Shown piece by piece: positions 12,997-57,545 of a stretch of 64,000 nt of DNA (its first letter is position 1; the number at the start of each line of letters is the position of its first letter). The DNA is from Candidatus Parcubacteria bacterium (lineage in GTDB: Bacteria > Patescibacteriota > Minisyncoccia > Phycocordibacterales > PALSA-1337), in the NCBI GenBank assembly GCA_039799225.1, contig JBDLTF010000005.1, forward strand, positions 2,884 to 66,883. The letters are read 5' to 3'. The notes under the pieces were generated by a model. It searched no databases, had not been told where the DNA came from, and was given only the letters and a program-made list of their open reading frames with translations. The position numbers were made by a program, and so were the translations under genes.

Positions 12997-13899
12997 TTAA
13001 GAACCATTTAATTCTATTATTGCATTTAACTCACTAATAAAGTCATAAATAAGATCATTTGAAATAATTACGCCCAGACTTTCATAATCATCACCACTTA
13101 CCATAGATGGTATACCGATCCTGCAACCATACTGGTCAACCGCCAAACCTCCGGAATTACCGTGACTAATTTTTGCGGAAGTTATTATTAAACCATCTTT
13201 TGCTAATAAACTACTTACAATTCCATCAGTTATAGTAAGTGCATATCCACCACTGATTGCTGGATATCCGTAGATTCTCACAGGCTCACCGAGCTTCACA
13301 TTCTCATTCCTACAGTATTTATTACTATCATAAGCCGGGAAATTCTTAGGATAAACTCCGTATGTCTTACCTTCATCCATATCATAATAAACATCATCTA
13401 TCTGTACAAAAGCGAGGTCGTATTGTTCACTCAAATCAGGGATTACAATTGGATATGCGGTGTATATTTCATCAGGTGCACCACTAGAAGGATCGGGTAG
13501 TATAACAAGGCAACTTGAAGTATCTTCTGCCCCTTTAGGAATTATATGAGCATTAGTTAGAACAAGTCCGTCCTCCGTCAAAATAGTACCTGAGCCGCCA
13601 GAGGTATCTTCTTCTTTTTCTCCAGTACAGTAAATATTCACAACTGCTGATGCTATATCTAGGTTTGTTTGATCACTTGCGGGTTTTATTCTCTTACTAT
13701 TATAAAAAAATACTAGTCCAACAATTACAATCAACAAAAAGATACCGCACGCAACAACTACTCTACTTTTAGTAAAATATTTTTTTGTTTTATTGAGAGC
13801 TTGAGTCTGATCTTCTCGAAGTATTTGTACCTCTGCACCGCATGACGTGCAAAATTTTATATTTTCTTTTATTTCATTCCCACATGATGTACAAAACAT
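12997..13899 (-). CDS. double-zinc-ribbon / TM / trypsin-like serine protease (S1-like) protein
   Basis: N-terminal FCTSCGN...FCTSCGA. One TM. His (TNAHI), Asp (DLAFVQID) and Ser (GNSGG) catalytic triad motifs. Confidence 0.7.
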   Translation of the reverse strand: MFCTSCGNEIKENIKFCTSCGAEVQILREDQTQALNKTKKYFTKSRVVVACGIFLLIVIVGLVFFYNSKRIKPASDQTNLDIASAVVNIYCTGEKEEDTSGGSGTILTEDGLVLTNAHIIPKGAEDTSSCLVILPDPSSGAPDEIYTAYPIVIPDLSEQYDLAFVQIDDVYYDMDEGKTYGVYPKNFPAYDSNKYCRNENVKLGEPVRIYGYPAISGGYALTITDGIVSSLLAKDGLIITSAKISHGNSGGLAVDQYGCRIGIPSMVSGDDYESLGVIISNDLIYDFISELNAIIELNGS

Positions 13900-13904
13900 A
13901 AAAA

Positions 13905-14372
13905 TTACTTAGCTGCGACAGAAATGCCGCAATTACCACAGAATTTTAGCTCTTTTATGGCTTGCGTACCACAACTTGAGCAATAACTTATCCGAATATC
14001 TTTATCCTTGGGAAAAAATTCAGTCTCAACAACTTCAGATTTAACTGCATCCTGTGAACCACTACTAAGTAAACTTATTCGGATATGATATTCTTCGTTA
14101 GTGATTTTGCCATCTACTAGGAGCTGATTTGTTTCTGCAAGAGGCTCCATTTGAGTAAACTGATCTCCATTCAATGTTACGCCGTATTTACAGACCGGAC
14201 AAGACAAGTAATGCTCTATTTTGTAAGGAAAAACTGGAATAAAAAATAAAGTAAACCAGGTCTTTATTTTGGTCAAAACCCAGTAGTGCTCGTTGTGGCA
14301 GTGGCTGCAAAGTTTTTTGAAAACTGGACCAAAGTTTTTAATTGTTTGAAAGCCCCAGCCAAAAATAATCAT
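13905..14372 (-). CDS. zinc-ribbon-containing small protein
   Basis: CSHCHNEH...CPVCKYG and C-terminal YCSSCG...FCGNCG. One hydrophobic segment. Confidence 0.5.
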   Translation of the reverse strand: MIIFGWGFQTIKNFGPVFKKLCSHCHNEHYWVLTKIKTWFTLFFIPVFPYKIEHYLSCPVCKYGVTLNGDQFTQMEPLAETNQLLVDGKITNEEYHIRISLLSSGSQDAVKSEVVETEFFPKDKDIRISYCSSCGTQAIKELKFCGNCGISVAAK

Positions 14373-14377
14373 GATTT

Positions 14378-15274
14378 TTAATTTTCAGCTAAATAATCAT
14401 AAACTTCCTGTGGCACCTCTACCCCATTCGCAATCGCTTTTCGTAAATAAATTTGAGCATTTATAGGATCATCATTTCTTGCATATGACAATCCAAGCCA
14501 ATAAGCAATGTATGTATCCGCATCAAGAGTTATGCTGGAAAATATTGAGATGGCTTGAGGATAATTTTCATTGAAATAGTAAGCCATACCGAGGTTTTGC
14601 TTGGCAATCTGCAAATCAGTCAATTGGACTGCACGTTGAGCATATTTCAATGCTTTCGGGTAATCAACATACTGAGGAGCATTATCTTCTAAGTCCATGT
14701 AAAAAAGTGCGAGCGAGTTATTAATTTGAAAATCATTAGGATCTTTTGAATAAGCCTTATTAAAGGCAAGCAAAGCTGCATTTGGCTTACTCTCAAGCAT
14801 TGCTATTTCTCCCGCAATCAAATAGTAATCGAAAGAATCACTCAGTGCTATTATAAGAGCTTCTTTGAAGGTGCTGATTGCCAAATCATTTTGTCCCTCA
14901 CCTGAATAGACGTAGGCAAGATTTTTAAGAGTGTTTACCTTATTTTCATTTGAGACCGCATCATGTGATGCTTGCTGGAGTTGATTTAAAGCTTGCTGAC
15001 TATTTCCAGAGTCATAGTTTGAAACTGCACTATTATTTTTCTCTATAACAGCATCATCCATAGATGCATATACAATCCATCCAACGATAGCAACAATAAA
15101 AAGCAGTTTAAATACCCTACCTATATTTCTCGATGCCTTAAATTTTGTTTTTCTAAAATTTGGGATACTTTGTTTTTGAGATAAACTGGTTTTAACTCCT
15201 AAAAGTTCTTTACCACAATTAGTACAGAACTTATTCAAACTATCTGATTTTGTGCCACAATTTTCGCAAAACAT
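14378..15274 (-). CDS. double-zinc-ribbon / TM / TPR-repeat protein
   Basis: N-terminal FCENCG...FCTNCG. One TM (FKLLFIVAIVGWIVYASM). TPR-like repeats in the C-terminal half. Confidence 0.65.
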   Translation of the reverse strand: MFCENCGTKSDSLNKFCTNCGKELLGVKTSLSQKQSIPNFRKTKFKASRNIGRVFKLLFIVAIVGWIVYASMDDAVIEKNNSAVSNYDSGNSQQALNQLQQASHDAVSNENKVNTLKNLAYVYSGEGQNDLAISTFKEALIIALSDSFDYYLIAGEIAMLESKPNAALLAFNKAYSKDPNDFQINNSLALFYMDLEDNAPQYVDYPKALKYAQRAVQLTDLQIAKQNLGMAYYFNENYPQAISIFSSITLDADTYIAYWLGLSYARNDDPINAQIYLRKAIANGVEVPQEVYDYLAEN

Positions 15275-15283
15275 ATTTGTATT

Positions 15284-15769
15284 TTATTTTAGGACGTTAT
15301 CAGGTAACTTATTCAGCTCAAATAAACTAATGATAACTGAAATAAAAAGTGCAATCTCTCCAAGACTTGATATGATTTCGACCTTCTGAAAAGCTATAAC
15401 AATGATAGTAAGTACTAAAATTATAGTGGCTATCCTGTGATCTGCCTTTGCTAACCTAATAAGCCCCCATATTCCGAATACAATGATCATTAGACCACCT
15501 ATGAATCCTACTGTACCTAGAAATACCTCGGACACATCACCAGCAAATGGTAAAAAGAGAAGACATATCGTTACTATCCACGGCCAAACAATCAACTTAC
15601 AGAGCAATTTATTTGATATTTTTCTGTTGGGTATCTTTATCTTCTCGTTAGATATTGCTGTATTAGCGATTTTATGACTTGAACTGTTTCCTATGGCCTT
15701 TCCACACCTAGCACAAAACATTGCACTATTTTTTATTTCATTTCCACATTCCCTGCAAAATTTGTTCAT
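15284..15769 (-). CDS. double-zinc-ribbon N-terminal multi-pass membrane protein
   Basis: N-terminal FCRECG...FCARCG followed by 3-4 predicted TM helices. Confidence 0.55.
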   Translation of the reverse strand: MNKFCRECGNEIKNSAMFCARCGKAIGNSSSHKIANTAISNEKIKIPNRKISNKLLCKLIVWPWIVTICLLFLPFAGDVSEVFLGTVGFIGGLMIIVFGIWGLIRLAKADHRIATIILVLTIIVIAFQKVEIISSLGEIALFISVIISLFELNKLPDNVLK

Positions 15770-18462: not shown

Positions 18463-19560
18463 TTACCTCGAATATTTCGACACATTAGCAACCATACCCG
18501 ACGCAGCGAGAATGATAATGAGCGCTGTACCTCCGTGCGAGACGAAAAGGAGTGGTAGGCCCGAAAGTGGTATGACCCCAAGCATCGCACCGATGTTCAT
18601 GAATGATTCGGTGATAATGAGGACTGCCAGACCGATTGCGAGCATACTGCCGAATGGGTCATGAGTGTGTGTACCTATACGGAACGAGCTCACCGCAAGC
18701 GATATATAGAGTGCGAGCAAGACCAATCCACCAAGAAAGCCGAACTCTTCAGCCGCTACCGCAAATATAGAGTCGCCAATTGGTTCTGGTAGATAGCCGA
18801 ACTTCTGGATACTCTGACCGAATCCACGACCAGCGAATTGTCCCGAACCTATGGCGATGAGGGATTGATTCACCTGATACCCAGTTCCCTGAGTATCCGA
18901 TCCTCCATTGAAATAAGTAGCGATGCGCTGGAGTGCATGCGGCTGAAGTGATAATGCTCCAGCCAAAGCAACTGCGCCAACAACAACTATTCCGATGAAA
19001 TGCTTTTTGGGCAAACCAGCGATAAACAACATCACCAGTCCGGTGAATCCAATAATGGCGAGCGTATCATTGTCATGCTGGAAAAATAAGAGTGTTCCGA
19101 GCACTGCCATTATGATGACATATGGCATAACTCCATGTTTGAACTGACTAATCTTGTCCTTGGTGAAATGAATCCAAGCCGCCATATATATGATGAATGC
19201 GATTTTCAAGAATTCAGATGGCTGGAATGAAATGAATCCGAGATCAATCCAGCGCGCCGCTCCGCCGTGATTCAAAGATAATGCTGGGATGAAAAGTAAA
19301 AGGTTGACGATGATTGAACCGATCAAGATAAAGAATGCTGCTGAGCGCAATCTGTGATAATTGAAACGAGAAAATCCCCAGAATGCTCCGACACCGATAA
19401 CCAAACTTATAGCTTGCTTGAGGGCAACCATACTGAAGTCCGCCCCATCACGTGCCAAGAGTCCAAGTGCTGCCGACAAGAATATGACGAAGCCGGCAAT
19501 CGTCAGTGCGGCGACAGAAAAGAGGAAGAATCGATCTATTTTTGCAGTAGCTGGCGACAT
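18463..19560 (-). CDS. ftsW: SEDS-family peptidoglycan glycosyltransferase (cell division protein FtsW/RodA)
   Basis: 10-TM profile. Conserved PSEFLKIAFIIYMAAW and GGTA motifs. Confidence 0.85.
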   Translation of the reverse strand: MSPATAKIDRFFLFSVAALTIAGFVIFLSAALGLLARDGADFSMVALKQAISLVIGVGAFWGFSRFNYHRLRSAAFFILIGSIIVNLLLFIPALSLNHGGAARWIDLGFISFQPSEFLKIAFIIYMAAWIHFTKDKISQFKHGVMPYVIIMAVLGTLLFFQHDNDTLAIIGFTGLVMLFIAGLPKKHFIGIVVVGAVALAGALSLQPHALQRIATYFNGGSDTQGTGYQVNQSLIAIGSGQFAGRGFGQSIQKFGYLPEPIGDSIFAVAAEEFGFLGGLVLLALYISLAVSSFRIGTHTHDPFGSMLAIGLAVLIITESFMNIGAMLGVIPLSGLPLLFVSHGGTALIIILAASGMVANVSKYSR

Positions 19561-20142
19561 TTACGGTTGAGGTTGGGAATCTGGAGTAGCCACAGGTTCC
19601 TGATGTGCCTTGAATCCTTCGATATCTTTCCTTACTTGTTCATATTCCGGCAATTCTTCAATTTTTGGAATTCCAAGATGTGACAAGAGTTGCAGAGTGG
19701 TCTTGTAGAGAAAACTACGAGCATCTTGTGGATTCTCTACACGCTCAACGAGTCCACGAATGAGTAGGTTACGCACGATGAACTGAGAATTGACCCCGCG
19801 GATGTAATCGATATCCGCACGAGAGATGGGACCTTGATACAAAATAATAGAAAGAGTCTCAAGTCCTGCTTTGCCAAGATCTCGCGTTAATTCTTCTTTG
19901 GTCAATTGTTCAATAAGAGGAGAAATTTCCTTGGCGGTGCCGAGCATAACTTCTTCGTTAGTACGCACAAGGGTCAAACCCCTTCCCTTCAGGGCGTTTT
20001 CCAATTCCTGCAAGCCAGCGTTGATAGCGTCAGTGCCCACATCGAGCAATGTGCACAATTTCTTGATAGAAACGGGTTCAGCTTTCCAGAAAAGGATGGC
20101 TTCAAGTTGAGCAGATAGATTCATATGATGAAATAATATCAT
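19561..20142 (-). CDS. scpB: segregation and condensation protein B
   Basis: LEAILFWKAEPVSIKKL winged-helix ScpB signature. Adjacent to scpA. Confidence 0.85.
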   Translation of the reverse strand: MILFHHMNLSAQLEAILFWKAEPVSIKKLCTLLDVGTDAINAGLQELENALKGRGLTLVRTNEEVMLGTAKEISPLIEQLTKEELTRDLGKAGLETLSIILYQGPISRADIDYIRGVNSQFIVRNLLIRGLVERVENPQDARSFLYKTTLQLLSHLGIPKIEELPEYEQVRKDIEGFKAHQEPVATPDSQPQP

Positions 20143-20864
20143 TAATACCTCGGCACCCCAACATTCTTGGTCTCCATATGAATATCGTCGAACTGCCTTT
20201 CTTGGGTAACGTGCAAGACGCCTTCCTTGACCAGCTCGAGCATCGCCAGGAAGCTCACGATGACATTCACCTTCTCACCTTTATGCTCACCGGTAAATTG
20301 TTTGAAACTCATACGCAGACTACTCGTAATACGATTGGTAAGTGTACCGATCATATCTTCGAGACTGACGACCTTCTGGACCACATGCTTTGGCAGACTC
20401 TCCTTCTTGGGTAGACGATTAATCAAATCTTTGAGCGAGTACAGCGCCTTCTCCAACGTGAATTCTGGCGCAGGGGCGAACACTGGCTGAACCGGTCGTG
20501 TCGCGGATTGTGAGAATATCATTTCAGCGCCAAAGAGTTTGCTGACATGGACACTCGCATCCTTTATGCGTTTAAATATTTTGAGGCGCGTCTCAAGGTC
20601 TTGAATGTCTCCTTTCTCTTCTTCAGTGAGGCTCAATTCAGGCAGAAGTGACTTGGACTTGATGAGAAGAAGCGTCGAAGCAACGAGAATGAAGTGTGCA
20701 GACTCCCCCATTGGCATCTGCTCGAATGAACGGACATGAGCGATGAAGTCATCGGTAACCTTGGCGAGTGAGATGTCACTAATGAAAAGCTTTCTCTTCT
20801 CAATAAGGTCAAGTAGGAGATCGAGAGGACCTTCGAATGACTGAGTTTTGACGGTAAATGCCAT
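20142..20864 (-). CDS. scpA: segregation and condensation protein A
   Basis: FEGPLDLLLDLIEKRKLFISDISLAKVTD is a canonical ScpA N-terminus. Confidence 0.85.
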   Translation of the reverse strand: MAFTVKTQSFEGPLDLLLDLIEKRKLFISDISLAKVTDDFIAHVRSFEQMPMGESAHFILVASTLLLIKSKSLLPELSLTEEEKGDIQDLETRLKIFKRIKDASVHVSKLFGAEMIFSQSATRPVQPVFAPAPEFTLEKALYSLKDLINRLPKKESLPKHVVQKVVSLEDMIGTLTNRITSSLRMSFKQFTGEHKGEKVNVIVSFLAMLELVKEGVLHVTQERQFDDIHMETKNVGVPRY

Positions 20865-20908
20865 GTCCGCATATTATAGCGCATCTTGCTTCCTATCAGA
20901 TATTTCGA

Positions 20909-21151
20909 TTATTTCTCAATAACACAGTCGAATTCTGACACAGTGGTACTGCCTATGAAAAAATAATCTTTAATTAAGATAAACTCACGAATATCTTGGC
21001 ACGCCTTCTCATTCAACGCTTTCTGGATGCGATATTCTCTCCGAGTAATACTATCCGCATATGATATAGATGCGGTAAATACGACTATGACCGAAGCGAT
21101 GCATCCCATAGCAAGCAAGATAATAGCCGTTACAGCCATGAAGCCACTCAT
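20909..21151 (-). CDS. hypothetical small membrane protein (possible minor pseudopilin lacking Glu5)
   Basis: Hydrophobic GFMAVTAIILLAMGCIASVIVVF segment after a short N-region. Start is uncertain: the table start at 21193 overlaps the prepilin ORF. Confidence 0.35.
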   Translation of the reverse strand: MSGFMAVTAIILLAMGCIASVIVVFTASISYADSITRREYRIQKALNEKACQDIREFILIKDYFFIGSTTVSEFDCVIEK

Positions 21152-21161
21152 TGAATTGTAG

Positions 21162-21332
21162 CTAATTCTGTTGCGCATAGTTGATATCATCAAGAAGCGA
21201 AGCGTCCTTCATTTGAATTGAGTATAGAAAATTAATCGTCCCCGCGATTAAGAACGATAGCAGCACGGTATATATCACAACCTCGATTAAGATCATTCCT
21301 TGTGTAGGATTTTTCTTTGAAGAATAAATCAT
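21162..21332 (-). CDS. small prepilin-like protein (56 aa; class III signal G|MILIEV with Glu+5), not in the supplied ORF table
   Basis: Minus-strand ORF MIYSSKKNPTQG|MILIEVVIYTVLLSFLIAG... Its ATG overlaps the stop of the upstream pilin-like gene (ATGA). Confidence 0.45.
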   Translation of the reverse strand: MIYSSKKNPTQGMILIEVVIYTVLLSFLIAGTINFLYSIQMKDASLLDDINYAQQN

Positions 21333-22798
21333 TTGAATGTGACCTCATAGATGATGGGTGCTGTACTCGCCAGAATATAAATCCGATTTCTATCACAAGT
21401 CATTGCTCGTGGTGTACTTGGGAGAGGAAAGGCTGTTGAAGATGTTGCTGACATAGAATAATTGAATACCTGTAATTCTTTTCCGACAGCGCGACTTATA
21501 GCATAGAGGTGAAATCTGTCGACAATGATTCCGTATATTCCACCAACAACATCGACAGACATGTTCAAGGATGGCGTTGGATGTTCAATTGAAGGCACCA
21601 ACCCAGCAAATAGCTCATGGTCATTTTTGATATTAAAACCACCCGATGTCCTGCCTAAGAAAATGGAATCCTCGAATGAGGTCGCTGACTTCCCTTCCTG
21701 ACGTTCCCAGCCAGACAGTTCGAATTCACCTGTAATGAGCGGAGTGCTTGGTTCAGAAATATCTACTGAAATCAGTTGCTCGCGTCCAGCGGTCGCAAGA
21801 TATGCATTTCCCTGTCGCACGAATATGTCTGTGACCTTACTCCCTATTTCAAGCCCACCTATTCGATGAGGTGTAGTAGAGCCTGCCACATCAATAATTG
21901 AAAACTCTTCTCCAATCCACTTTTCAGTTCCAAGGTATATCAATCCATTGTTATAGAATATTGAACTCGCAACCGGTGGCGTCGCGGTCGCATATGGAAG
22001 TGGTACTTGGTATTTGTATTCGAGAATAGGCGTAGCTAAACTATTAAATCGAATAACATGGAGTTGTGCCGCAGTACTCGCTGCAGCCGCGAAGATTTTG
22101 TCTTTGACTAAGGCAATTGAGGCGATTCCCGGACCAGTGTTTATTGAAGAAATTACAGTTGGATTATCATGATCTCTAATATCAGCAGTAAGAAGATCTG
22201 AATCTCCAGCCACGGATGAATCCGTAGAAATATAGGCAACACCATTTCGCACCTCTATATCTGTGAGCGGAAGCAGTGGATCTATAGGTAGTGTAATAGG
22301 AACTATAGACGCAACAAATGGTTTCAATGCTGGATGCTGGAATCCATATGAACCAACAGGATTTGTACTTGAAAAATTAACTGTACACAAAGGAGTTCCG
22401 CGGATTTCTTCCATAGACTCGAATGGGTACGCACGGACCGCATTGAATACAATAGGTCCAACTCGATTCATATATGGAGAATCCACCTCAAGGGAAATAT
22501 CTGTCTCAATTCGATTATTCCCAAACCATCGAGCCAATGCATCTATGGTCGTGGTGCCAAAAGATATACTAGGAGAAATACTAATGCTCCGCGACTCATG
22601 AGGCATCATATCTTCAAATTCACTTTTATGTTCCTCATATAAATTAAGAGCATATTCCCTTTCACGTGCAGTCTCGAACATATCTCGTGCTGATGAAGAT
22701 GCTTGCGCGATGGATGCGACGAACACTGTCCCGAGCGCGAGGGCCAGAAGAATATCAACAAGAATCAATCCTGATTTTTTGTTTGAGCGAGTAATCAT
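21329..22798 (-). CDS. pilin-like N-terminus + beta-propeller (LVIVD/YVTN-like repeats) protein; candidate pilus-associated adhesin
   Basis: N-terminus MITRSNKKSG|LILVDILLALALGT has prepilin-like geometry but Asp at +5. The C-terminal 440 aa has repeated beta-strand-rich units. Directly downstream of pilC and pilB. Confidence 0.55.
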   Translation of the reverse strand: MITRSNKKSGLILVDILLALALGTVFVASIAQASSSARDMFETAREREYALNLYEEHKSEFEDMMPHESRSISISPSISFGTTTIDALARWFGNNRIETDISLEVDSPYMNRVGPIVFNAVRAYPFESMEEIRGTPLCTVNFSSTNPVGSYGFQHPALKPFVASIVPITLPIDPLLPLTDIEVRNGVAYISTDSSVAGDSDLLTADIRDHDNPTVISSINTGPGIASIALVKDKIFAAAASTAAQLHVIRFNSLATPILEYKYQVPLPYATATPPVASSIFYNNGLIYLGTEKWIGEEFSIIDVAGSTTPHRIGGLEIGSKVTDIFVRQGNAYLATAGREQLISVDISEPSTPLITGEFELSGWERQEGKSATSFEDSIFLGRTSGGFNIKNDHELFAGLVPSIEHPTPSLNMSVDVVGGIYGIIVDRFHLYAISRAVGKELQVFNYSMSATSSTAFPLPSTPRAMTCDRNRIYILASTAPIIYEVTFK

Positions 22799-22804
22799 GG
22801 TTTG

Positions 22805-23866
22805 TTAGCGTTGAAGAACTTTCGATATGTCATAGATAGGCATCATGATGGAGAGCGCAATCGCTCCGACCACGATTCCCATGCCAGCCATCATCATGGG
22901 TTCAATGAGTGCTGTGGCACGTTTTAACTTGTGATCAATGTCTCTATCTATGATGTCAGCCGCGCGAACCATCGATTTGCCCAAGTTCCCCGAAGCTTCA
23001 CCGGCTAAGAGAAGCGGTGATACATATGGTGTCTTACGACATATGTTTCGAAGAATTACTCCAAGCGGTATTCCTTTCGATACTTGTTCGGCCTGAGAAT
23101 TCATATGGGAAGCAAGCGTGAGAAGAGAAACCGAAGCTGACGCACGAGTGTATGCGTTGACTGCTGATATTCCAGAATCGATTAATGTTCCACAAGATCT
23201 AAGGAACACAGATAACGAATAGGTATGGATGATATTTCCAATAAGCGGCACGTGAACAATACATATATGCATGATTTTTTTGAATACATGGGTGGTTCGA
23301 TACAGCACCAACGCAACCAATGCGATCGCGAAAATTCCTGCAAAAATAAAAAGTCCGTAGTCGATGAGGTGCTCAGAAATAAACATAACGATGCGGGTGA
23401 GAATTGGCAGATCAACACGAAGACTCTTAAGCATTGGAATAATTTGCGGCATAACTCCTCGCACAAGACCAATTGTGAGAATGCCCGCAAAAGCGCCAAT
23501 GACTACCGGATATGTCAGTGCTGAGAGAGATTTGCGACGAATATCATCTTGTTGTTCCATGAGCATACGTGCCATTGCGAGTGATTGTGCTAAGCCACCC
23601 GATTGTTCACCATGATCGATAAGACCAACAATCATCGGTGGTATGCGTACAGTTGAAGATAGTGACGTGGCGAGAGATGTACCACTAAGAATGCCGTGAT
23701 GCGCACGCATTACTTGTTTGGCTTGATTCTGCTTCATGCCCTGCGCAACTGTCTCGAGAGCTTTGTCGATACTCAAACCTGAAGATACATAAAGTTCTAT
23801 GTGTTCAAAAAGAAGCATGAGATCCCTGCGACGCCAACGCGCTCTATGTATACGAGTCGATGCCAT
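22805..23866 (-). CDS. pilC: type II secretion / type IV pilus platform protein (GspF/PilC family)
   Basis: Polytopic membrane protein with GspF-domain features. Located next to the GspE ATPase. Confidence 0.75.
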   Translation of the reverse strand: MASTRIHRARWRRRDLMLLFEHIELYVSSGLSIDKALETVAQGMKQNQAKQVMRAHHGILSGTSLATSLSSTVRIPPMIVGLIDHGEQSGGLAQSLAMARMLMEQQDDIRRKSLSALTYPVVIGAFAGILTIGLVRGVMPQIIPMLKSLRVDLPILTRIVMFISEHLIDYGLFIFAGIFAIALVALVLYRTTHVFKKIMHICIVHVPLIGNIIHTYSLSVFLRSCGTLIDSGISAVNAYTRASASVSLLTLASHMNSQAEQVSKGIPLGVILRNICRKTPYVSPLLLAGEASGNLGKSMVRAADIIDRDIDHKLKRATALIEPMMMAGMGIVVGAIALSIMMPIYDISKVLQR

Positions 23867-23870
23867 ATAC

Positions 23871-25013
23871 TCAATCAGCTAATACTCGAGCAACTTCTTG
23901 CTCTGTGGTAATTCCCCATTCCACTTTCTCGTGACCATCCTCACTCATAGGAACAAAACCTGCTGATTTTGCATACGCGAGCATGCTGGCAGAGCTCGAA
24001 CGCTCAACAATAAGTTCCTTCAATCCCGCGTCGACCGCGCAGGCTTCTGCAATCACAGATCTCCCGTTATATCCCGTATGTCGACACCTATCACATCCAT
24101 CTAATAAGCACTCTCGACACATGGCGCGGACCAACCGTTGAGCAACGACGAGACGAAGCGTGGATGCGAGAAGATACGGATCAACACCCATATCCATGAG
24201 GCGTGGAATTGCTTCGAGCGCAGAATTGGTATGTATTGTCGACAGCACAAGATGTCCCGTGAGTGCAGTATGAATAGCAACGCGCGCAGTTTCAGCATCA
24301 CGAATCTCACCAACCATGATGACATCAGGATCTTGTCGCAACGCTGAACGGAGACCTGAAGCGAAGGTCACTCCATGACTGTGTCGAATATGTACCTGAC
24401 GAACGAGTGGTATCTCATACTCGACTGGATCTTCAAGAGTGATTATGGATATGGGCTCGCGAGATTTGAGAGACAGACATGAATGAAGTGTCGTCGTCTT
24501 CCCCGAACCAGTCGGACCAGACACGAGAATGAGTCCAGATGCTTGTGCGAGTGCACCATCGATTGCACGAACATGGTCCGGCGTGAATCCGAGCTTGGCG
24601 AAAGACACTTCCGACGATATGCGTGCAGGCAGAAGACGTATGACAGCATTCTCACCATGATATGTAGGCATGAATGAGATGCGTATATTGTAATCATCGC
24701 CAGATATCTCAGACTTCCATCTCCCATCCTGCGGAACAGCATGTATATCTGTACGTGCACCCGAAAGTATTTTGAGACGTGCGATGATTTCCTCATGGAG
24801 CCTGCGTGACATGAGCGCCACTTCCTCGACCTGACCATCTATACGAAGACGTATACGGACACCGTCCTCAAATGGATCATAGTGAACATCCGAAGCACGC
24901 ACCGAAGCAGCATATGAAAGGAATGCATCTATAGCTTCTGTTGCCGTGGATGGCTCGTGGTCGAAGATTTTTTGTGCTGATTTTCCGATTATTTCTTGTG
25001 TGTTCATGGACAC
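23871..25013 (-). CDS. pilB: type II/IV secretion ATPase (GspE/PilB family)
   Basis: Walker A VSGPTGSGKTT, Asp/His boxes, tetracysteine CRECLLDGCDRCRHTGY zinc motif. Start is either GTG at 25013 or ATG at 25007. Confidence 0.9.
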   Translation of the reverse strand: MSMNTQEIIGKSAQKIFDHEPSTATEAIDAFLSYAASVRASDVHYDPFEDGVRIRLRIDGQVEEVALMSRRLHEEIIARLKILSGARTDIHAVPQDGRWKSEISGDDYNIRISFMPTYHGENAVIRLLPARISSEVSFAKLGFTPDHVRAIDGALAQASGLILVSGPTGSGKTTTLHSCLSLKSREPISIITLEDPVEYEIPLVRQVHIRHSHGVTFASGLRSALRQDPDVIMVGEIRDAETARVAIHTALTGHLVLSTIHTNSALEAIPRLMDMGVDPYLLASTLRLVVAQRLVRAMCRECLLDGCDRCRHTGYNGRSVIAEACAVDAGLKELIVERSSSASMLAYAKSAGFVPMSEDGHEKVEWGITTEQEVARVLAD

Positions 25014-25065
25014 ACTTTATCAAACCACTATGAAGGAACCGTGATGAAGTGGTAGAGAAACAATG
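25014..25065 (-). promoter_or_regulatory. conserved upstream motif, copy 3 (minus strand GTTTCTCTACCACTTCATCACGGTTCCTTCATA followed by TTTGATAAAGT)
   Basis: Immediately 5' of the pilB start. Same core as copies at 2699-2750 and 11849-11900. Confidence 0.5.
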
Positions 25066-25203
25066 ATGAACAGATTCTTATGATTTTATTTGCACTTTCC
25101 TTATAGATGTGTTATTATTCTCAGTCGCTGTTCTTTTGAAAACCATCCCATTCGGGAGACAAAAGGCGCATAAATACGGACTCAACTACTACTGAAGTTA
25201 CTC

Positions 25204-25752
25204 ATGTTACTACCGAATCGCCGAGAAATCCCTCAAGTCGTCATTCCTATGACCTGTATCGCCTGTATCAACCCTGAACGACAAGAGAAGATCAAACAGG
25301 CCTTGAATATCTGTGCCAAAGACCACGGATTCATCGTGTGGTCATTCCACAGTTTGGACATCTACGAGTGGATGCACACACTGGAAAATCGTATTCGCAC
25401 ACATATCGAGAACCGTCGGTTCCAATCTGTTTCGCGCGTCATGATCGTTGGTGCTCCACAGGTAGGCGACCAGGCCAAAGCCATCCATCGAGTTTGCCCT
25501 CATGCTCAGGCAGTCTACGTCGGCCCAAATATCAAGACGCCTCATCCCAATCATGCGACGCGCAATATTGCGAACGCCATCAAAGAGCTCGCTGCAACGA
25601 AGCATCGGTGCGAATATCTCGAACCGCTAGCGCCGATTGACTTCATCGTGCAACGCGCTATGACCGAGATGAAGTACACCGTGACAGCTCCGCAGCAAAT
25701 CACCGTACGGAACCCTTTGTCCACAGCCTCCCGCGAGCTCGTTCCCGCCTAG
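25204..25752 (+). CDS. hypothetical protein
   Basis: 182-aa ORF divergent from pilB. No recognisable motifs. Confidence 0.45.
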   Translation: MLLPNRREIPQVVIPMTCIACINPERQEKIKQALNICAKDHGFIVWSFHSLDIYEWMHTLENRIRTHIENRRFQSVSRVMIVGAPQVGDQAKAIHRVCPHAQAVYVGPNIKTPHPNHATRNIANAIKELAATKHRCEYLEPLAPIDFIVQRAMTEMKYTVTAPQQITVRNPLSTASRELVPA

Positions 25753-28974: not shown

Positions 28975-29943
28975 TCAGAGAGGATAATACATGTCGAGGG
29001 CGTTGCGAATCTGGATGCCGGATGCGATGCATACCTCAATATTGTGCACCGACTTTAACAAATGTTGCAACGAATCAATCACATCAATCCTCGTTGGATC
29101 CTCGATAGCAATCGTCAGATTACCACCATGGACCATGATAGGAACAATGTTATACCTGCGAGCTATCACTCGAGGAACAATGGCGATAACATCGTCAGGA
29201 ATATTCAGCTTTCCAGGTGCGACCACTTCGCACCCAAAATGAGCACCGTTTGCAGTGAGGACTTGCTCCTCCGTGATAACTTCCTTTTCGAGCAAGGCGG
29301 CAACGGCATCTTTCTCACCATCAGCTGTCGCTGACACAATTTCAGCGACCTGGTCACCCGTGATGAACCCGAGATCAATGAGAATGTGTACAAGATAGTC
29401 CCTGTTACCAGGATTGAAAACATGCGGCTTAGATTTCTGGTAATCAGCAATCTCCCTCGCATCGAACAGGATTGCTTTCCAAGTCGTATGTTCTGCGTTA
29501 GTCGGAATCATCCGCACAACGCCCGCTTTCGCAAGCTCGATAATCTTGCCACCCCATCCTGATGGAATAAACAGAGTATGACCTTGCATGATGCGTTCTG
29601 GCAAACCTTCACCATCATGAATCTCGAACTCCCTCCCCAGCGGAGCCGGAACTGAGAGTATACTGATCCACGTCGGATATTCACCCTGGAACTCCAAGAA
29701 TTCAAGGAATGAAGTAAAATCAACACCGAAAAAACCTCCTTTGATGCGTCCCTTCGTCGCAAACTGATGAGCGATGCGATTGATAATCTTCATTACATCT
29801 TGGACTTGATACCACCCCCAATCCCCGTATCTTTTCTCAGGAATGAGCTGGGATAGTTCTCTAAACCGATACACTTCGGGGGCTACAACCTCAGGCCACG
29901 GGACATCTAACAACCGATGCACTAATACTTTTGGTTTTTTCAT
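28975..29943 (-). CDS. protein with C-terminal GspE N-terminal (MshEN-type) domain and an unknown N-domain
   Basis: C-terminal PRVIARRYNIVPIMVHGGNLTIAIEDPTRIDVIDSLQHLL matches the T2SSE_N/MshEN fold signature. No ATPase domain. Confidence 0.6.
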   Translation of the reverse strand: MKKPKVLVHRLLDVPWPEVVAPEVYRFRELSQLIPEKRYGDWGWYQVQDVMKIINRIAHQFATKGRIKGGFFGVDFTSFLEFLEFQGEYPTWISILSVPAPLGREFEIHDGEGLPERIMQGHTLFIPSGWGGKIIELAKAGVVRMIPTNAEHTTWKAILFDAREIADYQKSKPHVFNPGNRDYLVHILIDLGFITGDQVAEIVSATADGEKDAVAALLEKEVITEEQVLTANGAHFGCEVVAPGKLNIPDDVIAIVPRVIARRYNIVPIMVHGGNLTIAIEDPTRIDVIDSLQHLLKSVHNIEVCIASGIQIRNALDMYYPL

Positions 29944-44097: not shown

Positions 44098-45204
44098 CTA
44101 TATCTCCTCAATATCAGACACCACACATCTGTTTCCATTGACTTTATATCCTGTCTCACAGGTATATACACAGTAGAGACCGGTTCCCGGTGTAGGACAC
44201 GAAGTCCTCAAATCTGTTCTGAGACCTGCATATCCGTCTGGAAGAGGACTATATGTGACATCTGCACATTGTAATGATCTTGTCGGTCGAGTACATGACA
44301 ATGTAGGAGCTGAGTATGGATTAACAGTCACATTAACTGTTCTCGTCTGAGGAGTTCCTCCTTCTGTACATGTGAATACTATACTTTTCGTTGTTGCTGA
44401 TGCTGACGTATTTGTGAACAGTATCGATCCTGATCCTGAATTAGCGACCGATCCACTCGTCCAACCACTTGTGACAGTAGCAGCTCCACTTGAGCTCTTC
44501 TGACAAGAAGAGTATCCAGCAGTGGCTGTCCATGATGTTAGTGCTGTAGCTTCGCCACTGGAATTTGCAGTGAGAGTAACTGATCCTGATGAACTCGTGT
44601 TAACAGTGGCTGATCCAACAGTGAGACTCATGCTACTGGAACCACCTGTAACTGTCGTATCAACACCTGTTGTTGGACTGAACCTAAGCCAACCAACCAC
44701 ATCGCTTCCCCATGAATATCCTTTGAGAGTAGCTGTGCCACTGTCCACTGCATAAGTAACACCTCCTGTTCCAGCTGTATTTCCCGTCGCATAATTAGTT
44801 CCAGAAAGACTAATCCAACCATCCCATCCATCAGAACGTGTAGCACTCGCACAATCCTTATTGACGGTTCCCGCACAAGCGCGCACCCATCCAAACACAT
44901 TGCCGTTTGTAGTGTTCACGGATGCGTTTGAACCGCTCAATGGCATACCAGTAAGCCCACCAAACTTAATCCATCCAACATTTGATGACCATGCATATCC
45001 AGTGAGATCACCATCAGTTTCGAGCTGAACCTTGTATGGTCCGCCACCTGCTCCTGAGTCAGAAGAATTGAAGCTCATCCATCCTATGTTGGATGACCAT
45101 GCCCAACCACTCAAATCTCGAGTAGTTGCTTGCGCATTGACGGCAAGAGTGGCCGTCGCTAGCAAGACGATGAGAACAAGAGCTCCCCAAAGGTATTTCT
45201 TCAT
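44098..45204 (-). CDS. secreted Gly/Ser/Thr-rich repeat protein with Trp-containing repeats and Cys-rich C-terminus
   Basis: Signal peptide MKKYLWGALVLIVLLATATLAVNA. Repeats GWAWSSNIGWMSF / GYAWSSNVGWIKF / GYSWGSDVVGWLRF. 8 Cys in the last 70 aa. Confidence 0.6.
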   Translation of the reverse strand: MKKYLWGALVLIVLLATATLAVNAQATTRDLSGWAWSSNIGWMSFNSSDSGAGGGPYKVQLETDGDLTGYAWSSNVGWIKFGGLTGMPLSGSNASVNTTNGNVFGWVRACAGTVNKDCASATRSDGWDGWISLSGTNYATGNTAGTGGVTYAVDSGTATLKGYSWGSDVVGWLRFSPTTGVDTTVTGGSSSMSLTVGSATVNTSSSGSVTLTANSSGEATALTSWTATAGYSSCQKSSSGAATVTSGWTSGSVANSGSGSILFTNTSASATTKSIVFTCTEGGTPQTRTVNVTVNPYSAPTLSCTRPTRSLQCADVTYSPLPDGYAGLRTDLRTSCPTPGTGLYCVYTCETGYKVNGNRCVVSDIEEI

Positions 45205-48715: not shown

Positions 48716-48978
48716 GTGAGTTTTTGCTTGTTACTACTATTTCGCAGAAAGTCGACGCTTTTCTTTGCCTGCACATACTAGCACAGTATGGGGATAATAG
48801 ATAGCAAGGAGGGTCGGCCTGAGGGGAATCTCGCCTTACAGGCGCGGTACAGGCTTCACATTTTCTCGGAGCGAAGCTCCTCGAAAATATGTTCAGCCTC
48901 TTCGATTCCCCGAGGCGCTCGCGCGCAGGCGCGAGCTTGGTGCAATTAGATTATACTTACAAAAGTGAGACTACCGAG

Positions 48979-49050
48979 TAGCCCTACGGGGAATCGAACC
49001 CCGATTACTGCCTTGAGAAGGCAATGTCCTAACCGTTAGACGATAGGGCC
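48979..49050 (-). tRNA. tRNA-Glu (anticodon CUC)
   Basis: 72-nt cloverleaf GGCCCTA TC GTCT AACGGTTA GGAC A TTGCC TTCTCAA GGCAG TAAT CGGGG TTCGATT CCCCG TAGGGCT A. Anticodon loop TTCTCAA. Confidence 0.75.
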
Positions 49051-55932: not shown

Positions 55933-56161
55933 GCGGCTAGTGTACAGGCAGAAACCATTGGTGACAAGCTAAAATCCCTCTCCCCACTCGACCCACTTTG
56001 GGTAAATACTGCCTGCGACGAATACGCACGGCAATACGACGATTGCGAGGATGACCCACAATGAGAAATGGATGATTTTCTTGAAAAACTCAATCATAGC
56101 GAAAAAGTATCTTATCCTACTGGAGAAATGTTCGCAAGGTTAGCTTTCTCTTCTTTATTTG

Positions 56162-56232
56162 TCGGGCTGCCGAGAATCGAACTCGGACCTCACACTCCCG
56201 AAGCGTGTATACTACCACTATACTACAGCCCG
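56162..56232 (-). tRNA. tRNA-Pro (anticodon CGG)
   Basis: 71-nt cloverleaf CGGGCTG TA GTAT AGTGGTA GTAT A CACGC TTCGGGA GTGTG AGGT CCGAG TTCGATT CTCGG CAGCCCG A. Confidence 0.7.
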
Positions 56233-56855: not shown

Positions 56856-57170
56856 CTACCAGAAGAAAAAATAATAAATTACAGGTAATACAAGAAAAAT
56901 AAGCAATATTGATTTTGCTATGATCTGTCGAACCCTTTCGCCAATATCAAGAATTTTAGAACTTTTAAAAATACTAATGATTGTAGCGATAAGACCAGAT
57001 ATATACAGATAACCGAATACGTACAAAATAACATACAGTATGTAATGTGGAGAGAATCCAAATGCACCACCTCCATATCTTGAATAATTAGTCTCTGCGG
57101 CAAATAAAGAAAACAATATCACCACTATGAGTATTACGCTCCAGACGTTTACGATCGTGGTTTTTTTCAT
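56856..57170 (-). CDS. hypothetical small multi-pass membrane protein (AT-rich)
   Basis: Start moved to MKKTTIVNVW. The longer table ORF runs through tRNA-Ala and the tandem repeats. Confidence 0.4.
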   Translation of the reverse strand: MKKTTIVNVWSVILIVVILFSLFAAETNYSRYGGGAFGFSPHYILYVILYVFGYLYISGLIATIISIFKSSKILDIGERVRQIIAKSILLIFLVLPVIYYFFFW

Positions 57171-57234
57171 AATAAAAATATTACCATGTAAATAATCAGT
57201 GTAAAAGGGTTCACAACTGAACATCACACATATT

Positions 57235-57265
57235 AAAAAACCGCCCATATCAGGCGGTTTTTTTG
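57235..57265. terminator. rho-independent terminator downstream of tRNA-Ala
   Basis: AAAAAACCGCCCATATCAGGCGGTTTTTTTG. Confidence 0.8.
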
Positions 57266-57271
57266 TATGTG

Positions 57272-57344
57272 TGGACCCGAGAGGAATTGAACCTCCGACC
57301 TTTGCTTTGCAAAAGCACTGCTCTACCAACTGAGCTACGGGCCC
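57272..57344 (-). tRNA. tRNA-Ala (anticodon UGC) with G3:U70 identity pair
   Basis: GGGCCCG TA GCTC AGTTGGTA GAGC A GTGCT TTTGCAA AGCAA AGGTC GGAGG TTCAATT CCTCT CGGGTCC A. Confidence 0.85.
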
Positions 57345-57545
57345 AAGTGAGGGACGAACGGACAAACTTGTTTGGACTTTCGGTCCGAACGCAGGGCCGG
57401 TATGAAATACGGGCCCAAGTGAGGGACTAAAGAACAAACTCGTTTGGACTTTTGGTCCGAACGCCGGGCCGGTATGAAATACGGGCCCAAGTGATGAACG
57501 AAAGATACTCTTACTTGGACTATTTTCGAACCCAAGTAATATACA
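57337..57545. repeat. tandem direct repeats of about 73 bp (two good copies plus one degenerate) in the 5' flank of tRNA-Ala, each starting with the first 9 nt of the tRNA
   Basis: ACGGGCCCAAGTGAGGGAC.AA.GAACAAAC.TGTTTGGACTTT.GGTCCGAACGC.GGGCCGGTATGAAAT, repeated from 57337 and from 57409. Third copy diverged. Confidence 0.7.

Follow-up and report, generated by a model that had tools for sequence, protein, structure and literature searches.

The core minor pilins and pseudopilins of tip or priming complexes, namely GspH/I/J/K, FimU-PilVWX and the PilA-PilB-PilC set of S. sanguinis, are among the closest known relations, in kind, of the short pilin considered here. The GspI-J-K and S. sanguinis PilA-B-C complexes bring together a subunit that lacks Glu at mature position 5 (Glu5) and bulky modular pilins, whereby the Glu5-less subunit goes in first and the bulky modular pilins fit solely at the tip (PMC9934059, PMC8179133). 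The described members of these complexes all have an alpha-beta head, and the smallest of them, GspI, has ~100 residues. Shorter pilins are known from other systems. The headless Tad pilin of Caulobacter, with 45 residues, forms the whole filament by itself (PMC10710030), and PilA-N of Geobacter, which has Phe1 and Pro22, is a major subunit with a partner, PilA-C, that is without a pilin-like hydrophobic N-terminus (PMC10710030). Within the Patescibacteria, the T4P-2 locus of Saccharibacteria encodes PilB2, the major pilin PilA2, the beta-propeller pilin PilX2 and small minor pilins, with PilX2 acting in host binding (PMC11623550).

The locus that we describe lies in a window of 64,000 nucleotides (the whole stretch of DNA that was analysed, from a Candidatus Parcubacteria bacterium), in which a mini-prepilin gene of 56 codons plus a stop codon occupies positions 21162..21332 of the minus strand. 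As read from the sequence of the window, this ORF (21332-21162) encodes MIYSSKKNPTQG/MILIEVVIYTVLLSFLIAGTINFLYSIQMKDASLLDDINYAQQN (56 aa; here and below, the slash marks the predicted cleavage site). The predicted leader peptide, MIYSSKKNPTQG (21297..21332, minus strand), has 12 residues, is basic and ends in Gly-1 (21299-21297), after which cleavage would leave a predicted mature pilin of 44 residues (21165..21296, minus strand), with a hydrophobic alpha1N segment over residues 1-25, Glu5 at 21284-21282 and then an amphipathic, acidic C-terminal half; an example of the C-terminal peptide of a mini-pilin is DASLLDDINYAQQN. The short basic leader up to Gly-1 and the Glu at +5, followed by ~20 hydrophobic residues, are those of a prepilin-type protein, and this reading bears out the basic leader, Gly-1, Glu+5 and hydrophobic helix that a first-pass annotation of the window had seen in the minus-strand ORF. 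Against the Pfam family N_methyl (PF07963), the mini-pilin of the window scored 17.7 bits with a cut-off of 21.2 bits, and an NCBIfam scan gave no match to TIGR02532.

The gene had initially been taken to be unlisted, which holds for the earlier ORF table, where it falls below the length cutoff, but not for the public databases. NCBI already calls it (MEN9913033.1, hypothetical protein RLY66_441, from a Candidatus Parcubacteria MAG), IMG labels it 'Tfp pilus assembly protein PilV', and other calls of mini-pilin genes stand in the databases under generic names. For many public genomes the mini-pilin entries (P0160, P0201, P0184, P0186 and others) are 43-44 aa long, their start having been called at the Met just after the Gly of the cleavage site. 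Such 'leaderless' database versions have lost the class III signal from their annotation, and small-ORF cut-offs, as well as gene callers that choose this +1 Met, hide or shorten the mini-pilin.

The genes on the same strand upstream of the mini-pilin gene have Pfam T2SSE and T2SSF matches and encode a 489-aa protein, in agreement with the earlier placement of the ORF directly 3' of pilB-pilC and a large pilin-like gene. The T2SSE gene (23871..25013, minus strand; E=1.3e-108) specifies a GspE/PilB-type assembly ATPase of 380 aa without long N-terminal domains, which scored 401, 372 and 243 bits on the NCBIfam models for GspE, PilB and ComGA, each under the equivalog cut-off, and 55 bits on the TadA-family model. 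The GspF/PilC-type platform protein (22805..23866, minus strand; 353 aa) matches Pfam T2SSF in two stretches (E=2e-37) and NCBIfam GspF with 202 bits, under the cut-off. The third gene (21329..22798, minus strand) encodes the large modular pilin-like protein of 489 aa, with a class III-like N-terminus, KKSG/LILVDILLALALG (KKSG/LILVD), that carries Asp at +5, and with LVIVD repeats. The Pfam LVIVD match of the window's protein is weak (E=0.0074), many of its homologues have a precomputed PF08309 assignment, and we infer that the repeat region forms a beta-propeller. The search for this protein returned 228 homologues, and every named one belongs to the Patescibacteria/Paceibacteria.

On its 3' side the mini-pilin gene is overlapped by 17 nt by a gene for a small pilin-like protein (20909..21178, minus strand; 89 aa from the ATG at 21178, or 94 aa from a TTG at 21193), which begins MRNRISYNSMSG/FMAVTAIILLAMG (MSG/FMAVTAIILL), is pilin-like without Glu at +5 and has two conserved Cys; scpA, scpB, ftsW and murG come after it in the window. 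The order ATPase, platform, large pilin, mini-pilin and small Glu5-less pilin is kept in ~60 species, and the cassette-linked ATPase and platform genes are present in 61 and 62, respectively, of 63 related loci.

Some other features of the window might be mentioned. MshEN is a type of N-terminal domain found on MshE/GspE ATPases, and a 322-aa protein with a C-terminal MshEN domain (28975-29943, minus strand; Pfam E=1.4e-15) stands alone ~4 kb from the MshEN-less ATPase; the other loci showed no such stand-alone protein in the 5 kb around the cassette. A low-GC region at 12997-15769 (0.35-0.40, versus ~0.46 elsewhere) contains four consecutive minus-strand genes with zinc-ribbon-like starts (three MFC..CG and one MNKFCRECG), followed by membrane, TPR or trypsin-like regions. 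The minus-strand gene at 44098-45204 encodes a secreted-looking protein of 368 aa, in which motifs of the GWAWSSN[IV]GW type recur and for which Pfam gave no match. There are tRNA genes for Glu-CTC, Pro-CGG and Ala-TGC at 48978-49050, 56161-56232 and 57271-57344, all on the minus strand, and a mechanically called ORF, 56856-57437, that runs through tRNA-Ala is probably not a gene.

A word search with the single mini-pilin of the window found one homologue, a protein of 58 aa and 55% identity encoded on a 907-bp contig of visibly higher GC, where the three-gene order and the ATGA overlap described below are the same as in the window. Related loci were then defined with a profile of 35 large-pilin homologues, which led to 63 loci from species-representative genomes. 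The first-pass annotation had raised the prospect that the ORF might be unconserved, or out of frame, in relatives; a homologous short ORF lies right after the large pilin-like gene in 61 of the 61 loci with sequence covering that spot (Paceibacteria), and the linkage of mini-pilins to pilB/pilC that it had suggested looking for is kept in ~60 species. For 58 of the 61 loci, 51 of them with an unfused mini-pilin, the ORFs were measured in detail. At -1 there is a Gly in 57 loci and an Ala in the remaining one, Glu+5 is present in all 58, and Thr2, Leu3, Tyr/Phe9, Leu12, Leu13, Ser14 and Leu16 are near-invariant; Gly-1 is also invariant in the two mini-pilin alignments A2 and A3 (42 and 54 sequences). 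The alignment is gapless from Gly-1 to the C-terminus, and the mature lengths of the 51 unfused mini-pilins (44 aa in 21, 43 aa in eight and 40-51 aa in 50 of them) vary little. The leader ranges from 3 to ~30 residues among relatives.

The GC of these loci ranges from 0.30 to 0.61. Synonymous sites are saturated when the window gene is compared with its nearest relatives, and selection on the mini-pilin was therefore estimated from closer pairs among the relatives. The 12 closest pairs had pN values of 0.07-0.24 and pS values of 0.50-1.0, and dN/dS was 0.03-0.19 in the closest pairs with estimable dS. Conservation in all 61 loci, the fixed residues and length and the low dN/dS indicate that the mini-pilin ORF is, as judged by sequence comparison, a genuine gene under purifying selection. 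A spurious ORF with a pilin-like motif arising by chance might be suspected from the shortness of the protein, its score under the Pfam cut-off and the lack of a conserved ribosome-binding motif, but such an ORF would not be expected at every covered locus over so wide a range of GC and with so few nonsynonymous changes. Moreover, a six-frame scan of the window for the class III pattern plus a hydrophobic stretch gave two matches, the mini-ORF and the adjacent 489-aa gene (G/LILVD), and the pattern, which was found 0.2 times per window in a shuffled control (30 shuffles), occurs exactly inside the pilus operon. The comparative sequence data thus refute a chance origin, to which we would assign a negligible probability.

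The family extends well beyond these loci. A word-based profile search of 5.8 billion proteins returned 75 mini-pilin matches, and when 1.84 billion cluster representatives were scanned in full with HMMER, 132 had E<=1e-10 and 498 had E<=1e-3, with lengths of 43-80 aa in nearly every case. Names attached to some of the matches include 'prepilin-type N-terminal cleavage/methylation domain-containing protein', PilV, PulG and ComGC. Of 42 family members, 37 matched Pfam N_methyl with E<=0.01, the best value being 1.8e-7, and a precomputed PF07963 assignment is attached to several of the members in the databases. Among the marginal matches are P0192 (112 aa) and P0197 (114 aa), which share the N-terminal motif (G/FTLIEIIIYIALLSLLM) but also have a C-terminal region of normal length; such proteins suggest that an ordinary minor pseudopilin of the Patescibacteria was shortened to give the mini-pilin.

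The ATG of the mini-pilin gene (21332-21330) overlaps the TGA stop of the 489-aa gene (21331-21329) in an ATGA sequence at 21329..21332 of the minus strand, as had been noted earlier and as can be read directly, and overlap or close spacing is usual at this junction among the 58 relatives: 11 have an ATGA overlap, as is also seen in the window and in L002, 25 have other overlaps and 19 have a gap of 35 nt or less. The gene usually also overlaps its downstream neighbour in the relatives, by 4 to ~70 nt. No Shine-Dalgarno-like motif was seen in the 22 nt upstream of the mini-pilin start in any of the 58 relatives. A GAGG that is located 9 nt upstream of the ATG in the window was considered for this role and set aside, since none of the 58 relatives has the motif and GAGG encodes Glu-Val of the upstream protein, so that its occurrence looks coincidental. 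Initiation at the mini-pilin start may instead rely on coupling to the upstream stop. A scan of 19500-25600 for promoters and terminators gave counts at shuffle expectation. The overlaps between the cassette genes suggest that their products form a stoichiometric complex.

The predicted structure of the mini-pilin is a single continuous helix (AlphaFold2 with the 54-sequence alignment; residues 15-55, mean pLDDT 82) without a globular head. Mature positions 1-25 are hydrophobic in the family save for Thr2, Glu5, Ser14 and position 22 (measured over the 58 loci, the hydrophobic share is at least 55% at positions 3-21, Glu5 and Ser14 excepted), and in positions 26-44 hydrophobic residues at 27, 32, 34, 35, 38, 41 and 42 alternate with acidic or polar ones. 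In the type IV pilin lollipop fold a globular C-terminal domain sits on alpha1C, and the 44-residue mini-pilin is modelled as helix only; it is therefore predicted to be a pilin alpha1 helix without the globular head. A profile search of the PDB with the family gave weak matches to the N-terminal motif only, the best being Geobacter PilA-N (7tgg, 9egp; E=0.012). The earlier remark that the mature protein is unusually short is apt when type IVa and T2SS-like pilins are the standard, but not when Tad/Flp pilins are, with 45 residues in Caulobacter (PMC10710030).

The comparison with PilA of Caulobacter crescentus, a Tad/Flp (type IVc) pilin, goes further than size, in that both proteins are helix-only, with a hydrophobic N-terminal and a polar C-terminal half, and share Thr2 and Glu5 (PMC10710030). 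We nevertheless rejected an identification as a Flp/Tad pilin. The Flp motif is Gly/xxxxGlu-Tyr, while the mini-pilins have Val, Thr, Ile or Ala at +6 and their Tyr at +9; the Pfam family Flp (Flp_Fap) gave no match to the mini-pilin at E<=1; and the motor pairs an ATPase of the GspE/PilB type with a GspF/PilC platform of two domains, in place of TadA/CpaF with TadB/TadC. Geobacter PilA-N is alike in being a short, helix-only pilin (~61-65 residues) with a partner gene, for PilA-C, directly 3', and in that both are fused in some other genomes. This identification was also rejected, since the window's mini-pilin has Met1, position 22 is Ser, Gln or Asn in the family, and the partner of the mini-pilin has a Gly/Phe pilin-like N-terminus of its own, without Glu5. 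GspI or PilV, the latter being the name used by IMG, was tried as well and dismissed, there being no match to TIGR01707 or TIGR02523 and, as the sole NCBIfam match, PRK10557 at E=0.16 and 11 bits.

With the minor pilins of tip complexes the mini-pilin shares a class III-type N-terminus with Glu5, and its gene is clustered with those for a Glu5-less and a bulky modular pilin, next to PilB/PilC genes (PMC9934059, PMC8179133). It differs from all described members in having 44 residues and no head, and the Paceibacteria cassette encodes three pilin-like proteins in place of four. Compared by description only, the Saccharibacteria T4P-2 locus is likewise a Patescibacteria locus with a dedicated ATPase, a beta-propeller pilin and several small pilins (PMC11623550), but it belongs to the class Saccharimonadia and not to the Paceibacteria, and a headless pilin of 44 residues is not among the components described in the sections consulted (PMC11623550). 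Searches of the open-access literature turned up no account of a minor pilin without a head in a PilB/PilC-type system, or of the Paceibacteria cassette.

Some of the related loci encode a further pilin, of canonical form. In 20 of the 63 loci, a gene for a protein of 155-179 aa lies directly 3' of the cassette (examples are L009:6814-7281, L024:6941-7429, L033:6685-7149 and L055:6655-7140), with the N-terminus G/FTLIEVLVVIGIIA and the motif [KR]G/FTLIE[VI]LVVIGIIA...NPARQFKLARDSQR. The protein scored 29-33 bits on TIGR02532 (cut-off 16.3 bits) and is 62-75% identical across loci (one close pair, 95%), at which the large pilins are ~40% identical to that of the window; the canonical pilin is thus better conserved across very divergent genomes than the other pilins of the cassette. 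It suggests itself as the subunit of the shaft, a role that it probably has. Neither a gene of this kind nor, among the window ORFs inspected (part of them Pfam-scanned), a candidate for a prepilin peptidase was found in the 64-kb window, and both are therefore assumed to be encoded elsewhere in the source genome.

By a different explanation, the mini-pilin itself would be the shaft, or major, subunit of a very thin, helix-only Tad/Flp-like filament built on a PilB/PilC-type machine, with the propeller and Glu5-less pilins at the tip. The cassette has its own ATPase and platform, 43 of the 63 loci have no other pilin beside it, and in mature size (44 aa), in its polar C-terminal half and in its single-helix model the mini-pilin is like the Tad pilin of Caulobacter with its 45 residues; for Saccharibacteria, pili as thin as 1.8 nm are reported (PMC11623550). 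However, the mini-pilin gene is sandwiched between, and overlaps, both of its neighbours, which argues against expression in large excess, the fused lineages described below have no free mini-pilin gene, 20 loci have, after the cassette, a canonical pilin that is much better conserved, and the mini-pilin lacks the Tyr at +6, as the cassette lacks an ATPase of the Tad type. On balance we consider a shaft role unlikely; the mini-pilin, unlike the Caulobacter Tad pilin, is probably not a major subunit.

We favour instead, with moderate confidence, a role for the mini-pilin in a tip or priming complex, as a minor pilin made up of alpha1 alone. A minor role is preferred on account of the overlapping genes, the 1:1 fusion to the next pilin in some lineages and the better-conserved canonical pilin at the end of the cassette. 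Points that weigh against this assignment are that genes for a peptidase and a canonical pilin were not found in the window, that the window's mini-pilin scores under the Pfam and NCBIfam cut-offs, that two thirds of the related loci show no obvious shaft pilin next to the cassette, that the fused forms have an awkward topology (see below) and that the 58 relatives have no Shine-Dalgarno-like motif. The partner in these fusions, the Glu5-less small pilin, was found in at least 52 related loci; in its family alignment (A4) a Gly, an Arg and a Cys are invariant, a Phe is near-invariant and Glu5 is absent, and profile searches of Pfam and the PDB with the family gave no sequence match. In-frame fusions of mini-pilin and Glu5-less pilin are present in seven of the 58 loci (L005, L007, L008, L012, L013, L015 and L039; for example, L008:6461-6859) and account for eight proteins among the 150 representatives listed (P0207, P0255, P0257, P0259, P0277, P0302, P0309 and P0315); they fall into two sub-clades that also hold unfused members, and no fewer than 15 independent assemblies have them. 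In the fusions the second protein has lost its leader, but its Gly-Phe is invariant and preceded by Lys or Arg in most. AlphaFold2 modelled the fused protein P0255 as a helix (19-57), a break (58-61, QRGF), a second helix (62-118) and a beta-hairpin, with a pLDDT of 86. The 57-residue helix plus beta-hairpin would make the second protein a minimal pilin with a 57-residue alpha1; a Foldseek comparison of the model with the PDB gave no match, as expected for long helices. In the lineages with the fusion, mini-pilin and Glu5-less pilin would be made in a 1:1 ratio.

The fused forms are hard to reconcile with a simple pilin topology, since they place two hydrophobic segments of N-in/C-out orientation in tandem, ~20 residues apart, and they bear on two other explanations. 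The mini-pilin and the downstream protein might be halves of one polypeptide, with the fused form as the basic state and the mini part, in the role of an extended pro-region or anchor, removed by a cut at the second Gly/Phe. The number of independent assemblies with in-frame fusions, the invariance of the second Gly-Phe and the basic residue that precedes it in most, and the position of the modelled helix break in P0255, exactly at the second site, would all fit, but the split state is the majority, in 51 of 58 loci and in most representatives, and the N-in/C-out orientation of the first helix would put the second site on the outer face of the membrane, away from the active site of the peptidase as judged from the known topology of such enzymes. 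We regard this explanation as very improbable.

Alternatively, the mini-pilin might be an assembly accessory that stays in the membrane, outside of the filament, where it could, for example, dock or orient the neighbouring pilins on the platform. It is a tiny protein with one transmembrane helix and a short amphipathic tail, recognisable PilM/N/O alignment proteins are absent from the cassette in the window and in the related loci, and fusion to the next protein would create a two-helix membrane hairpin. Such a hairpin, however, would put the conserved Cys pair of the fused partner in the cytoplasm, and a static anchor would have no obvious use for Gly-1 and Glu+5, which are invariant, or for Thr2 and Leu3, which hardly vary, these being residues that serve prepilin processing and subunit-subunit contacts in filaments (PMC10710030). 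A purely membrane-bound function therefore appears improbable to us.

For the minor pilin of a tip complex, the assignment that we prefer, the following course of events might be envisaged. A prepilin peptidase encoded elsewhere in the genome would probably remove the 12-residue leader after Gly12, and the mini-pilin would be expected to be methylated as well as cleaved. The product would be a 44-residue subunit with a hydrophobic N-terminal half (Thr/Ile2, Leu3, Glu5, Tyr9), an amphipathic, acidic C-terminal half and no head, made in near-equimolar amounts with the two proteins whose genes overlap its own, namely the Glu5-less pilin and the 489-aa pilin with the putative beta-propeller. These three proteins would most likely nucleate and then cap a type IV filament assembled by the PilB-like ATPase and PilC-like platform of the cassette, with a shaft probably built from the canonical ~150-aa pilin. 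Within the complex, the Glu5-less pilin might be on top and the headless mini-pilin might lie under it as a core helix, at a place where an ordinary head would collide with the bulky propeller.

Two more unusual possibilities, that a PilB/PilC-type machine polymerises the mini-pilin into an ultra-thin, helix-only filament, or that the fused form is a tandem 'poly-prepilin' cut twice by the prepilin peptidase to release two subunits, are in our estimation improbable even when taken together. If either were true, it would represent a new assembly mode for type IV filaments.

Patescibacteria are thought to rely on type IV pili for attachment to their hosts and for the uptake of DNA, and their pilins are poorly characterised. 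The mini-pilin family indicates that a pilin can be reduced to a bare alpha1 helix and yet be retained at a fixed length, in a system that is not of the Tad type, across the class Paceibacteria, and it bears on the ways in which tip complexes might accommodate bulky adhesin modules. The cassette of five or six genes is compact and conserved, and is open to reconstitution or modelling, while the recurrent fusion of the mini-pilin to the next pilin offers a ready hypothesis as to which of the subunits might touch each other.
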